Source: Eledone cirrhosa
Taxonomy: Eukaryota
DNA length: 64,000 nucleotides
Reading direction: 5' to 3'
Assembly (NCBI GenBank): GCA_964016885.1
Contig: OZ024740.1
Span: 69,502,001 to 69,566,000, forward strand
Below the pieces are notes generated by a model that worked only from the letters and a program-made list of their open reading frames with translations, was not told the origin of the DNA and made no database searches. The position numbers were made by a program, and so were the translations under genes. This document shows, one piece after another, positions 4,350 through 62,945 of this stretch (position 1 is the stretch's first letter; every line of letters begins with the position of its first letter).

Positions 4350-5258
4350 CACATATTTATTCAGGTTTGTGGTTCACCACTGTATAGAGCTGGTCTATTC
4401 CGTATGGTCAATCGTAATGTAATAATATACAGAGTACTCAACGTAAAGCAGTTCAACCGTCTTTGTTTTTGTAGTTGGTGGTGCTATTACGGAGTTAAAT
4501 ATTATAATGACATGACAGGAGGTTGGATTTGTGTAAATCCTTGAAAGGTTTATTATACTATTATCATTTCAATGACCGGGTTCCGTATGAATCCGGTGAT
4601 ATCATCAGGTATTCGAAATATAATACGTGAATGTAATAGATAAAATCGATGGGGCTGAAAATCGAGGACCCGAGGGCGACCGCTATCTTGCACCCTCTAT
4701 CTTAGCCGGTCGCCCTCCAGTGACGTGGCTAAGGCTCACAGTGTGCTACTACCGGTCAGATAAAGGAAAACAGAAAGGGATGGGAACATAAGTTACAAGA
4801 CAAAAGAAAGAAAGAAAGAAAGGAGAGAGAACAAGGGGGAAGGAAGAAGAGGAGAAGCCAGGGTTAATGTCAGCTATAAGAAGAAAGACAGAAAGAAAGA
4901 GGAGGAAAGGTCGGTATTACAGTCAGGCCTTCTTCTCTCTCCTTCCTTTCTTTCCTTCTTTTGTCTTGTAACTTATGTTCCCATCCCTTTCTGTTTTCCT
5001 TCATCTGACCGGTAGTAGCACACTGTGAGCTTTAGCCACGTCACTCGAGGGCGACTGGCTAAGATAGAGGGTGTAAGATAGCGGTCGCCGTCGGGTCCTC
5101 GATTTTCAGCCCCATGGATTTTATCTATTACATTCACGTATTATATTTCGAATACCTGATGATATCACCGGATTCATACGGAACCCGGTCATTGAAATAA
5201 TCATAGTATAATAAACCTTTCAAGGATTTACACAAATCCAGCCTCCTGTCATTTCATT
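4350..5258. mobile_element. Asymmetric fold-back element in (TA)n with divergent hammerheads at 4555-4612 (-) and 5152-5209 (+)
   Basis: Arms ~4505-4860 and ~4925-5258 are inverted copies. AUAC-CUGAUGA-..ACCGG..CCGGU..-GAAA-U(G/A)AU(C/A)A-UA^GUAU, with consensus stem III palindrome AUGAUCAU. AATAAA follows. Confidence 0.88.
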
Positions 5259-5303
5259 ACATATACATATATATATATACATATACATATACATATATAT
5301 ATA

Positions 5304-5530
5304 TGACAGTCAAGTTTGCAATTTTCAACAGTTGAAAATTGCAAACTTGACTGTCACCACACATTATGAACCTGAAGATTGCGAAAGCATGAAAGTACTT
5401 GTTCAATTAACCATTAACATTTAATATTCTACCATACTATTTCATTCTAATACCATTATACATGGTAAAGGATTGTAAATAAAACGAGTAAATCAGAGAA
5501 AGTTGGAATACCTTTTATTAATATAATCTT
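5304..5530 (+). mobile_element. Small HHR element: 26-bp perfect snap-back hairpin (5304-5356) followed by a hammerhead at 5367-5405
   Basis: UGAAC-CUGAAGA-U-UGC(GAAA)GCA-U-GAAA-GUAC-UU^GUUCA, palindromic GUAC loop. Flanked by TA-rich microsatellite. Confidence 0.85.
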
Positions 5531-5785
5531 CTATACACAATCATACAGACCCGTGTATATTTCTCTCTCTCTCTCTCTCTCTATATATATATATATATAT
5601 ATATATATATACATATATATATATATATATATATATACACATATAGATACATATATATATATATATATATATATATATATATATATATATATATATATAA
5701 ACATATATATATGTATATACAAATATACATACATATATATACATACATATATATATATACACATATACATATATATATATATATA

Positions 5786-6230
5786 TACGATATTAAACAA
5801 ATGGAAACTATATTTATAAAACCATATTTATTTCATTATACATATTTCAGGGATACCATATTAAAAATATGGCATGCCTTCTTCAGATAAAATACAATAT
5901 ATAAGCAGTTTTATAAATAAATTTGACGTACCATAAATATTGATCAACTTCCATGTAAAAAGTTGATCTACTTCCATGGAAGTTGATCAATATTTAGGGT
6001 ACGTCAAATTTATTTATAAAACTGCTTATATATTGTATTTTATCTGAAGAAGGCATGCCATATTTTTAATATGGTATCCCTGAAATATGTATAATGAAAT
6101 AAATATGATTTTATAAATATAGTTTCCATTTGTTTAATATCGTATATCTACTCCAAAACTTGTTGGGTGCTTTATATCAGTTATAAAATATTTACTTTTT
6201 GTAACCCAACAATTTTAAATAAAACTTTTG
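5786..6230. mobile_element. Family C fold-back element in (TA)n with hammerheads at 5829-5894 (-) and 6036-6101 (+)
   Basis: UAUUUUAU-CUGAAGA-[long stem II ..GCCAUAUU/AAUAUGGU..]-GAA-AUAUGUAU-A^AUGAAAUA. Stem III is self-complementary with G-U pairs. Arms ~5786-5955 and ~5975-6146. Confidence 0.88.
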
Positions 6231-6716
6231 CATATATATATATATATATATATATATACATATACATATATCTATACATATATATATATATATACATATA
6301 TATATATGTATATACACATATACATATATATATATATATATATATATATATACATACATACATGCATGTATACATGCACATGCATATACATATACTAGCA
6401 GATACACACACACACATATATATATATATATATATACATACACAGACGTACACATATACACATATATAAACATACACACCCATATATACACGTACACACA
6501 TATATATATACATATATATAAATATATACACATATACACGCACATATACATATATATATATATATATATATACATATGTATATATATATATATATACACA
6601 CATAAACATACATACACATTCACACATATATGTACATATATATATATATATATATATATATATATATATATATATATATATATATATATATATATATATA
6701 TATATATATATATATA

Positions 6717-7613
6717 TACTATAAAGTATGTCCATAGAATCATTTGATAGGATATATACACCATCTCCTCTCTCAATCACCATAATCAACCAAACAAAAC
6801 CAATTAAACCAGGCTATAAGATTAAAAGGCACCTATGAAGAAATAATAGATAAATAAACGACACCCATCTACTCGCGATCAACACAGCCATAGAATATTT
6901 ACCCAACATTTCAATAGCACGTGGAATCGATTAAATATATCGTCAACCATACACAATTAGGTATACATTTAAAGTTAGAAGAAAAAATGTATATAAACAT
7001 ACGAAGATTACGTTTCTACCCATTGGGATTTCACTCGCGTTTGGAAATATCCCATCAAGGACAAGTTCATAAGCTTCGAATTCATCAGGAAACAAACTCA
7101 CTTGGACGAAGATTTTTCTTAAATGATCCCCGCCAGAAATGAATTCAAAATGGCTAAGAACTGTTGCGTGGCAGTGATCAAGTCGGAAAGAATGTGATTG
7201 GTGACTTACGGCGAGTGGACTGGTTGCTAGAAAGCGCAGCCTAATATTGCCTAAATTGCATCTCAACCTCATGGGAGATTATAAAATATAAAGATCTACA
7301 TATTCACAAACTAGACAAAGTCATGGATATATATATATATGTTTTTGGCAACCATTCACGATGTGGCTCAATGACGAATTAATTAATTAAATAACTAACA
7401 ATCAGAGCAATATACTATAATGTATGTCCATAGAATCATTTGATAAGATGTATACACCATCCCCTCTCCCAATCAGCATAATCAACCACACAAAAAAAAC
7501 AATCAAACCAGGCTATAAGATTAAAAGGCACCTATGAAGAAATAATAGATAAATAAACGACAGCCATCTATTCGCGATCAACAGCCATAGAATATTTACC
7601 CACCATTTCAATA
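6717..7613. mobile_element. Partial-tandem element (~696-bp unit with ~200-bp direct terminal repeats) in (TA)n
   Basis: 6717-6916 is repeated at 7413-7613. Only a degenerate HHR-like motif is present (CUGAUGA...GAACUUGUC, - strand 7060-7088). Confidence 0.65.
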
Positions 7614-60385: not shown

Positions 60386-61738
60386 TGTAAGTATGTATGT
60401 ATATATTTATGTATGTATTTATGTATGTATTTATGTATGTATGTGTATGCATGTATATATGCTTCTATGTATCTATGTTATCCCTTTTGCAATCGTTCAT
60501 CCTTTGAATCGGAAAAATGTTTTAAAGATGTTTAACGTTCCAGATATTTTGGCCATTTGTAGCTTATGAATTAAGGAGTTTCTTTCTCTACAAATCCATA
60601 CTTCGCTTCAGACAGGTTGATATATATTCCGAATATCTAATCATAATGGACTGCGCAATCTATTTCATATTGCTTTGAACCCTCCTCTTGTTTTTCTAGG
60701 CAGACAGCCTGCATATGGAACTAATGGTTTGATCATTACTTTCCCTCAACTTGATATTCTGTAGTGGTGTCATTTACAGAGATTGAACCTTTTATATTGA
60801 AGCTACATTAAACCGATTTTGAAACTATGGCAAATAATTTTTCTGCATTTGCCGTATACATATTTCAGTGTTTCAACTGTGGTTGAAACGGTACTTTTAT
60901 TTATCAAACCTGAAGGGATGAATAGCAGTTAACCCCATTTAAAGTTTCATCTCAGATCACAGATTGCCGAAACGAATATCAGAATGTATTTCATGCGACG
61001 TTTGAACGACGCTCCGTCTGAATAAATAATCAAGGGAGCTTGATAAATAAAGTGAAAGCTAGACTAAGTACTATGGAGACTGGATCTATATAATAGATGA
61101 TGTGACATCATAGTTATCACAGGGATCTCGGGAAAAGGTTCATGAGTTCCTATGATTGATAAAAACACACACACACACACATACATACACAGACACACGC
61201 ACACACACATATATATATATATATATATATATATATACAGACACACATACGCACTTGCGAGTGCAGACCCTTTTACTTTTGTAGTTATGGACATGACGAA
61301 CGGGTAAGGAACTGCAACATCACATGGAGTGTGCTGGCTACGATGCTATTAAGGATTTAACCGATTATATACTCGTATCGAAATTCGAATGCAAATACTG
61401 GTTAATTTAATTTTGAGACTTTATCGTCACGTTACTGAATGTTTTCTCGAATACACACCCAACTTTCCTTCACCTTGCCCCTTTCTATTTCCTGAATTAC
61501 TAGATGACCCTATCACCTCCCACTTAAACATATATATATCAAATAATTCTCAATATTCATGAGATTAATAGAATCTTTTCATTATCGGATAATTAATTAG
61601 GGGATCATTGCTTGTTATTTTCTGAATCGAGTTATGTACTAGGGTTGATTTTACTGAGTTCATAGCACGAGCACTGGGGTCAATTTAATCGATTTCCTTT
61701 CCTAAAAAAAATTATTAGCCTTGTACATAAATCAGAAA

Positions 61739-61920
61739 CGGCAGTATCGGTAAAGTGTCGGACGCCATCCATTGACGTATAGAGTTACGGCCCTTGCCAT
61801 TCTGGGTTCAAATCCCGCCGAGGTTAACTTTGCCTTTCATCCTTACGGGGTCGATAAAATAAAGTACCAGTAATACACTGGGTAATTGCTGGCCTTGTGC
61901 CAAAAGTAGAAACAATTATT
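61739..61920 (+). mobile_element. SINE family 1
   Basis: A/B boxes, core, 3' gtagaaacaattatt. Confidence 0.9.
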
Positions 61921-62346
61921 AACAAATAATAGAATTTAACAGATATAAATATATACAATAATGTGATTGTTTCAAATGAATATAACAAACTTATAGAGAT
62001 TGTCTGTATTATGTACCTCCAGTATTATAAACTTTCTTACTACAACTGTGAAATGAAAAGTTCCAAGAAACCCACGATCCACTGAGAGAAACTAAAATAT
62101 AAGAATTCGCTACAAAATGTATTTTCATTCCAGATTGATTTTTATTTTTTAGTTTGATATTTAATGCTAATGTTTCATTAGGTACTCCACATCGATGATT
62201 CAAACTATAGACAACAGATACACACATACACCCACAGAAACAAACAAACACACACACACACACACACACACACACACACACACACACACACACACACACA
62301 CACACACACACACACACACACACACACACACACACACACACGCGCG

Positions 62347-62460
62347 CGTGGCTGAGTGGTTAGGGAATTAGATTCGCAATCGTAAGGTTGTGAGTTCGAT
62401 TCCTGGACGAGGCGATGCGTTATGTCCTTGAGCAAGACACTTTATTTCACGTTGCTCCTT
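62347..62460 (+). mobile_element. tRNA-derived SINE family 2
   Basis: tggctgagtggt A box, gagttcgattcc B box, gtccttgagcaagacactt core. Confidence 0.8.
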
Positions 62461-62653
62461 CTACCTGGAGTTGCGACCGAAAGATAGTATTAGCAATTGG
62501 AAAGACCAACGGAAACATTGTTCCCTCGGTCCGATTTGACGAAAGTCGATCGTTCCTTTTATATATATATATATACATATATATATATATATATATGTGT
62601 GTGTGTGTGTGTGTATAGATAAATACATATCTATATATACATATATATATATC

Positions 62654-62945
62654 AATGATATTAAATAAATGGAAACTATATTTATAAAACCATATTTATT
62701 CTATTATATTATTTCAAGGGTACCAATACTTATGTACGCTCTCATCAGATAAAATACAAAGTTTATTTTATAAATATTGACATATCCAGGAAGAGGATCT
62801 TAACGGTTCAAGGTTTTCCTGGATAGTTTCCATTTATTTAATATCATTGATATTATACTCCAGAAAATCTGTCGAATGCTTCGAATCAGTTATAAACATA
62901 TATATTTGTTGAATTACCAACAAATTAAATATTCCTTTATGCTTA
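62654..62945. mobile_element. Family C fold-back element with hammerhead at 62697-62756 (-)
   Basis: UAUUUUAU-CUGAUGA-GAGCGUAC..GUACCCUU-GAA-AUAAUAU-A^AUAGAAUA. Same terminus as the 5786 element (gatattaaa.aaatggaaactatatttataaaaccatattta). Confidence 0.85.

Follow-up and report, generated by a model that had tools for sequence, protein, structure and literature searches.

Head-to-head Penelope-like inserts in (TA)n tracts of Eledone cirrhosa combine a long and a short end, a probable outcome of coupled twin priming

The stretch analysed here, 64,000 nucleotides (nt) of Eledone cirrhosa (assembly GCA_964016885.1, contig OZ024740.1, positions 69,502,001 to 69,566,000, forward strand), is AT-rich, repeat-dense animal DNA; we call it the window and count coordinates from its first letter. 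Its (TA)n tracts contain short inverted inserts, which are pseudo-long terminal repeats (pLTRs) of Penelope-like elements (PLEs), either truncated or lacking an open reading frame (ORF). Sixteen inserts have two arms and both ends inside the window (I1-I11, B1, B3, B4, B6 and B7). The arms are unequal in 14 of the 16, one of them being longer by an extra piece, the PLE 'tail'; only I7 and I8 are symmetric. The longer arm is on the left in 10 inserts and on the right in 4. The original prediction for this stretch had listed six long/short pairs besides five family B palindromes. All six pairs are present, with coordinates right to 0-7 nt except 10690, which should read ~10666, and three asymmetric inserts can be added to them: I6 (23401/23910), I9 (55985/55532) and I11 (62945/62649).

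The inserts were detected by masked self-BLAST (94 microsatellite tracts masked), per-locus alignment and a blind self-inversion scan. The scan of 58 inter-tract segments gave 21 match rows; at the same threshold shuffled segments gave none (0/174). B3, B4, B7 and I11 have no separate rows in the scan, and were taken from the self-BLAST and per-locus comparisons. In the list below, core denotes a hammerhead-like core, defined as CUGANGA or a one-base variant of it followed by GAAA, and microhomology denotes the overlap of the tract with the continuation of the long arm at the short site.

4357..4836, minus: I1 long arm, family E; tail 4357-4504, 148 nt; core 4608
4928..5259, plus: I1 short arm; core 5156; 2-nt TA microhomology; arms 318/332 identical, spacer 91 nt
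5783..5958, minus: I2 short arm, family A; core 5886; short end 5783-5787; 5-nt microhomology
5972..6229, plus: I2 long arm; core 6044; tail 82 nt
10666..10894, minus: I3 long arm, family D; long end ~10666, last 25 nt AT-rich; tail 100 nt
10919..11048, plus: I3 short arm; core 10961; 3-nt microhomology
16550..16755, minus: I4 long arm, family A; core 16749; tail 96 nt; 29-nt spacer belonging to this arm
16756..16836, plus: I4 short arm, starting inside hammerhead stem II; 2-nt microhomology
22018..22448, minus: I5 long arm, family D; core 22263; tail 160 nt
22881..23152, plus: I5 short arm; core 23067; 4-nt microhomology; spacer 432 nt
23401..23910: I6 palindrome, 242/243 identity; left arm longer by a 29-nt tail; 7-nt microhomology
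25341..26083: I7 symmetric fold-back with a 34-nt copy of its own terminus inside (25866-25899)
37071..37370: I8 symmetric short/short fold-back, family A; cores 37172 (minus) and 37284 (plus); each end 63 nt from GAAA
55532..55985: I9, family E; left arm short, right arm long, tail 142 nt; degenerate core 55734 (plus); strict microhomology 0 nt
56580..56867, minus: I10 inverted pLTR with long end; tail 86 nt; degenerate core 56735
56868..57283, plus: I10 element body, first the endonuclease C-terminus (56887-56979) and after it the pLTR (core 57214), up to the short site; 4-nt microhomology
62649..62945: I11, family A; left arm short, core 62748 (minus); right arm long, tail 92 nt; 4-nt microhomology
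3765..3812, minus: B0, single short arm
18001..18195: B1; long arm left (minus), short arm right (plus)
24973..25109, plus: B2, single long arm
32468..32604: B3; long arm (minus) ending ~10 nt beyond the short site, joined to a full short arm (plus)
34637..34752: B4; long arm (minus) consisting of the tail only, which stops ~20 nt ahead of the short site; its partner is a full short arm (plus)
34866..34976, minus: B5, single long arm, abutting a short interspersed element (SINE)
44413..44604: B6; long arm left (minus), short arm right (plus)
56361..56551: B7; short arm left (minus), long arm right (plus); tail 77 nt; 3-nt microhomology
12333..13434, minus: C1 body, family C, 5'-truncated reverse transcriptase (RT) ORF remnant; a SINE and an Asn-rich stretch lie beyond it, to ~13780
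13783..13998, plus: C1 inverted pLTR with long end; ATG 13933 opens 22 codons; tail 40 nt; 4-nt microhomology for family C
26391..27941, minus: C2, direct, 5'-truncated PLE copy with ORF 26865-27941, ending at the short site; no inverted arm, a TA tract on each side
33538..33591, minus: C3, fragment ending at the family C short site
10026..10075, plus: tail-only fragment sharing its long end with I10

Outside family B the two arms of an insert are 90-100% identical. The five two-armed family B inserts are all asymmetric, as claimed, but true duplicated palindromes are found only in B1, B6 and B7. B3 and B4 are inverted and hardly duplicated, their long arms holding little beyond the tail. A deletion probably removed ~120 nt from the interior of the I11 long arm.

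Hammerhead-like cores oriented nine of the 16 inserts (I1, I2, I3, I4, I5, I8, I9, I10 and I11). The cores lie on the minus strand in left arms and on the plus strand in right arms, and all nine inserts read outward (divergent, head-to-head), as had been predicted. In I10 this orientation was checked independently: the 215-nt spacer encodes an endonuclease C-terminus on the plus strand, which is the strand of the right-arm core. The cores of I9 and I10 are degenerate, and in I4, I9 and I11 the core is complete in just one arm; a three-stem hammerhead descriptor was passed by I2, I4, I8, I10 and I11 only. Family B has kept only the 3' half of the hammerhead (GAAAC, a 5-bp stem III and a GUC site, read by eye), and its five inserts were oriented only through this half and family homology. 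No core was found in I6, I7 or family C, and for I6 and I7 the search for cores gave no independent orientation marker. Rfam, run on the whole window and on two inserts, reported no hammerhead at the gathering score, only sub-threshold hairpin and microRNA matches. As to convergent pairs, which according to the original prediction should not be as common as divergent ones, no PLE-type convergent fold-back was found in the window. The sole convergent pair, 33166-33494, consists of two SINE copies arranged tail to tail, which are identical at 94/107 positions, like unrelated copies. The outward orientation of the arms holds wherever it is testable.

The ends fall on two fixed sites. All seven family B long arms end at one position, in agreement with the predicted fixed long end. 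In family B a single TAT, give or take 2 nt, marks the end of all six short arms, despite the 3-5 TAT/ATA and 15-20 TA/AT sites that each long arm offers as alternatives; the predicted priming of the second end at a TA microhomology, if read as opportunistic, was not supported. Seven arms of families A and D have their short site 58-69 nt past the hammerhead GAAA; in the others the distance is 43-80 nt. The two family C short ends (26391 and 33538) are at the same site, and this family has one long end, at 13998. The short site also terminates the stand-alone copies C2, C3 and B0, as well as both arms of I8. The tail separating the two sites is 77-160 nt long in nine of the 11 cases measured (range 29-160 nt).

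Hammerhead cleavage was rejected as the source of the ends: the predicted family A cut lies ~10-12 nt past GAAA, as against 43-80 nt for the short sites. Folding around the start sites of six sequences gave no significant structure (z -1.4 to +0.7). A shared tail motif that would make I7 a short/short insert was not significant either (z near 0).

The short sites carry microhomology to the tract. A TA overlap of 2-7 nt was found in 10 of 11 short sites, as the original prediction had anticipated. Random breakpoints in the same arms served as the null model; family B was represented once (B7), family C compared two loci, and the I5 value was read by hand. At least 3 nt were found in 8/11 sites, compared with 1.46 expected (p 7e-6), and in 5/8 when families were collapsed to their worst member (p 0.0012). 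The sum, 38 compared with 11.9 expected, was reached in 24 of 1e6 draws. The short end of B1 is abutted not by a plain tract but by an inverted duplication of flanking DNA (18190-18241). Its end is nevertheless at the family site, with a 3-nt match; since B1 keeps this site although its flank is folded-back target DNA, the junction points to a site that is chosen by the particle and then paired.

A partial direct tandem at 6720-7610 (197-nt repeat, 91%) lies between TA tracts and has 3-5 nt of tract overlap at both ends. It calls for caution, because 5' junctions evidently carry microhomology too.

The PLE origin of the inserts, already suggested in the original prediction, is supported by ORF links in family C and I10. 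In C1, the ATG at 13933 opens 22 codons running into the tract, and the short site is at codons 8-9, so both sites are inside the start of the ORF. When the 22-amino-acid peptide was compared with N-termini from four full-length homologs, picked because they are close and have intact N-termini, it ranked first of 580 ATG-started open 22-mers of the masked window and beat 5000/5000 shuffles. The endonuclease C-terminus of I10 is 50% identical over 32 amino acids to protein P0023 (E 8e-4 against the masked window). The family C ORF 26865-27941 runs into the pLTR. The inverted pLTR bears the tail in I10 as well as in C1, and the I10 body closes at the short site. No such link of an ORF to the termini is present in families A, B, D and E or in I6 and I7.

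These findings bear on what the two ends are. The long end had been taken for the true 3' end of the RNA, but the family C long end falls mid-ORF, 22 codons in. Among 18 long ends compared, all run into TA-type tracts and none into poly(A). The long arm had likewise been taken for the first strand; in I10 it is the short arm that forms the element body with the endonuclease C-terminus, and short ends close C2, C3, B0 and both I8 arms. Thus neither end is a true RNA 3' terminus, nor is the long arm regularly the first strand.

Three RT/endonuclease remnants, all on the minus strand (8330-9693, 12333-13434 and 26865-27941), match unnamed long proteins. By their motifs we take them to be Penelope-like, and the clade labels used here are presumptive in the same way. 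The top match of ORF 26865-27938 (minus), among 19 matches, is an Octopus vulgaris protein with 63% identity. A Pfam scan of 10 window proteins assigned no family to the six PLE-like fragments; matches were obtained only for the L1-type RT and endonuclease frames (2/10).

One frame of the family B long arms (18001-18139, 56414-56551 and others) is free of stops in B1, B2 and B7 (~44 codons), whereas the other two frames have stops. Judged by its sequence it may be an ORF N-terminus; no homolog of it was found. Upstream of the family C RT remnant, an Asn-rich (AAC/AAT)n frame occupies 13487-13780, reminiscent of the Asn-rich inserts in rotifer Penelope ORFs (PMC3846280).

Mixed ends, one long and one short, occur in 14/16 inserts. 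Independent choice of the two ends could give at most 50% (p 0.002), which argues that the ends are paired. None of the 16 was identified as long/long, I7 being unclassed. The sister arms at one locus are 96-98% identical, compared with 77-90% between family A loci, and in B1, B6 and B7 subfamily bases are common to both arms. Because of this within-locus identity and the common subfamily bases, each fold-back was probably made on site, as a separate event.

The family B arms all start at nearly the same point, to within a few bases, in the predicted loop of stem II. The centre of I2 has a 24-nt natural palindrome that is present twice, the copies overlapping at GATC, and the I4 arms are joined by ~2 nt. 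The central spacer is an extension of the short arm in three inserts (I10, B1 and B6) and of the long arm in two (I4 and B7); the spacers of I1, I5 and I7 could be assigned to neither strand, and that of I11 is ambiguous. With such mixed ownership no single snap-back polarity explains the spacers, and two annealing complementary DNAs (cDNAs) fit them better, without being proven by them. B3 and B4 were considered as proof of twin priming on a single RNA. They are only suggestive, being two inserts to which a one-sided central deletion also fits.

Perfect or near-perfect hairpins lie in or beside TA tracts at 36209-36374, 18190-18241, 5306-5354 and 28956-28996. The first two (81/81 identity at 36209-36374) have a TA run at their centre and resemble copies of flanking DNA made by snap-back.

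We think that the head-to-head pLTR inserts were probably formed by coupled twin priming, by one ribonucleoprotein particle (RNP) at a double-strand cut in (TA)n. Both tract strands would be cut by the element protein. Reverse transcription would then begin at the far site from one DNA end and, from the other, at the near site, which would pair with the TA primer; a single particle would use both sites, one per target end. The two cDNAs would be joined where they meet, at a hairpin or a stretch of microhomology (in family B, hammerhead stem II), and repair would fill in afterwards. The core might be copied twice from two RNAs, by displacement on one RNA, or in one pass with snap-back of one cDNA. 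PLE RT is not known to have RNase H, and a second copy of the core from a single RNA would therefore require displacement. Priming from both target ends, the central idea of the original prediction, is the most economical model of the data; that earlier model was right in outline and wrong on the true 3' end and on the opportunistic second site.

Several of these steps are taken from biochemical work on an anole PLE protein (PMC11167929). In vitro the protein cuts and extends both target strands, its RT starts at two internal sites that bound the tail, and it is predicted to dimerise. Tentatively, and with less confidence than the formation of the present inserts, we suggest that twin priming might be the programmed default of PLE integration: a dimeric RT-endonuclease in one RNP would use one tail-bounding start site per DNA end, with the near site paired to the TA primer. 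If so, the inverted pLTR and the one-sided tail would be products of one mechanism, and tails of 29-160 nt would reflect how far apart the two active sites lie on the RNA.

Several observations weigh against coupled twin priming or against the support claimed for it. The anole protein starts in vitro at sites not homologous to the cut DNA, and the start sites are alike on both strands (PMC11167929), two results that speak against coupling of the ends. The sequence is static and holds no intermediate, so it cannot separate two annealed cDNAs from hairpin snap-back, and the centres of family B are at a predicted stem-loop, as snap-back would predict. Symmetric palindromes continue into self-complementary (TA)n, and their loss in evolution or assembly may have inflated the figure of 14/16. 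The likeness of sister arms could be due to gene conversion, and the grouping by locus is imperfect: the sister arm of B6 is no closer (5/54 differences) than arms of other loci, and the long arm of B7 differs less from B0 (2/48) than from its own sister (4/53). I9 lacks strict microhomology. Rfam found no hammerhead in I3 and I8. The ORF link is lacking in family B; a hidden Markov model of 26 protein N-termini had no match in 15 arms and found no tail, single-protein scores for the C1 peptide were not significant, and the homologs in its ranking had been selected as stated above. The whole study covers one 64-kb window.

Self-priming with resolution was weighed as a rather unlikely but serious rival. 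One target-primed cDNA would snap back at an internal palindrome and copy itself, and the copy, cut or stopped at a fixed TA-like site, would be joined to the other target end. Self-priming was proposed in the Discussion of PMC3846280, and PMC8557442 attributes the tail to endonuclease-mediated resolution. It would account for the natural hairpins at the centres of family B, I2 and I8 and for the near-identical arms; the TA-centred hairpins of flanking DNA (18190-18241 and 36209-36374) show that snap-back occurs here, and the short/short I8 would be its natural product. However, a long-primed cDNA would by default give the long/long inserts that were not identified. The spacers of I10, B1 and B6 are part of the short arm, and a short-arm cDNA has no template for the tail; B4 has no duplicated core. 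Moreover, both tail boundaries are RT start sites in vitro (PMC11167929).

It is very unlikely that the asymmetry was inherited or is secondary, that is, that a master palindrome was copied whole in the manner of a miniature inverted-repeat transposable element (MITE) or that one tip was lost by microsatellite slippage or deletion. The centre of family B is nearly as constant as its ends, and later deletions were inferred in I11 and B7 and possibly occurred in B3 and B4. On the other side, arms group by locus and not long with long, the centres of B1, B6 and B7 differ, and random erosion would not yield one site in 6/6 short arms. The pattern recurs in six families (A, B, D, E, I6 and I10), and family C has the same two ends at separate loci.

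The least probable of the explanations is the one originally predicted, which follows L1 twin priming: the first strand would start from the true RNA 3' end, and the other target end would take whichever internal TA/AT came to hand. Microhomology at the short ends and the non-overlapping inverted geometry of B3 and B4 are expected from it. Against it, the short end is one site per family, which contradicts it for family B in the window. That site also closes the I10 body and stand-alone copies; in family C an ORF contains the long end, and most inserts duplicate the same terminus and not an upstream region.

In the twin priming reportedly described for L1 by Ostertag and Kazazian in 2001, both cut target ends prime cDNA and the joined cDNAs give an inverted outcome. 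L1 starts by priming on poly(A); its second priming site varies, and what becomes inverted is upstream RNA. The inserts resemble these products in their inverted outcome, and B3 and B4 share the geometry, but here both sites are fixed, poly(A) is absent and the same terminus is usually duplicated. L1 twin priming is also mentioned in bioRxiv 10.1101/2024.12.14.628481. A MITE or foldback DNA transposon should have equal terminal inverted repeats copied as a unit, unlike the inserts with their unequal ends (14/16), arms grouping by locus and differing centres.

Most of the pattern is explained by known PLE biology. Head-to-head inverted pLTRs, a one-sided tail of 30-40 bp and (TA)n targeting are already described for PLEs in PMC3846280 and PMC8557442. 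Endonuclease-bearing (EN+) PLEs such as Pen2a_Av (PMC3846280), those of PMC8557442 and D. virilis Penelope (PMC2377424) share with the inserts head-to-head pLTRs, a tail at one end, (TA)n targets, palindromes at the inverted junction and, for the nine inserts with a hammerhead-like core, a putative pLTR hammerhead. The pLTR of Pen2a_Av holds 12 codons of the ORF, 22 with the tail (PMC3846280), and C1 has the same layout, its pLTR and tail covering the first ORF codons. In contrast to these EN+ PLEs, most inserts here are ORF-less pLTR pairs, and the 77-160-nt tails (9/11) compare with 30-40 bp in print. Pairing of the ends, described there as optional, was counted here. PAc (Poseidon, green anole; PMC11167929) is similar in its AT-rich target and in having ends downstream of the hammerhead and not at the cleavage site; its start is not homologous to the cut DNA and does not differ between strands, whereas here the near site pairs over 2-7 nt and the ends differ in 14/16.

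What is added here is the longer tails, the base-pairing at the near site and the count showing that the ends are paired. In the literature as searched by title or abstract start, subscription papers aside, we found nothing that counts paired end usage or applies twin priming to PLEs; PMC8557442 and PMC11167929 state the origin of inverted pLTRs and one-sided tails as an open question. Tiny head-to-head pLTR pairs are numerous in TA-rich genomes such as this one, and each lets both ends of one event be read. Counts of long/short, short/short and long/long inserts offer a cheap genome-scale test of twin priming by a dimer, and tell the in vitro system what to measure. For annotation, such inserts look like MITEs or microRNA hairpins and are best read as PLE products.

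The left edge of the window, 1-3740, is a retrozyme-like tandem array with a hammerhead-bearing unit of 463 nt, arranged head-to-head: a minus array to 2545 and a plus array to a TA tract at 3740. The TA-tract end has 1 nt of microhomology and the left end is outside the window; Rfam HH9 matched the array below the gathering score. Non-LTR retrozymes, according to PMC7229834 and bioRxiv 10.64898/2026.07.22.740005, are non-coding, hammerhead-bearing PLE derivatives in direct tandem arrays, unlike the single inverted pairs described above.

A 5'-truncated PLE RT-endonuclease remnant, broken by stops and frameshifts, extends over 8164-9697 (minus) with its 5' end abutting a TA tract. By its motifs it is presumably Neptune-like. 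An LTR-like element at 19237-21951, inside a TA tract, has direct repeats of 479 nt (96%); a primer-site-like motif lies on its minus strand near 21460, and no long ORF was seen in the element. Copies of one SINE-like repeat, 80-97% identical, are at 13370-13566, 17461-17615, 28209-28391, 33166-33494, 34975-35189, 37456-37727, 46113-46217 and 61740-61953. An L1-type element with endonuclease and RT (Pfam RVT_1, weak Exo_endo_phos match) and two other long interspersed element remnants, which we take to be RTE/R4-like by their motifs, occupy 46689-50002 (minus), 35292-36255 (minus) and 52314-54036 (plus). Finally, a terminal short TA-rich motif of a 2.5-kb segment, 14028-16550, served as target of the I4 long end; the segment's termini resemble Helitron-type repeats.

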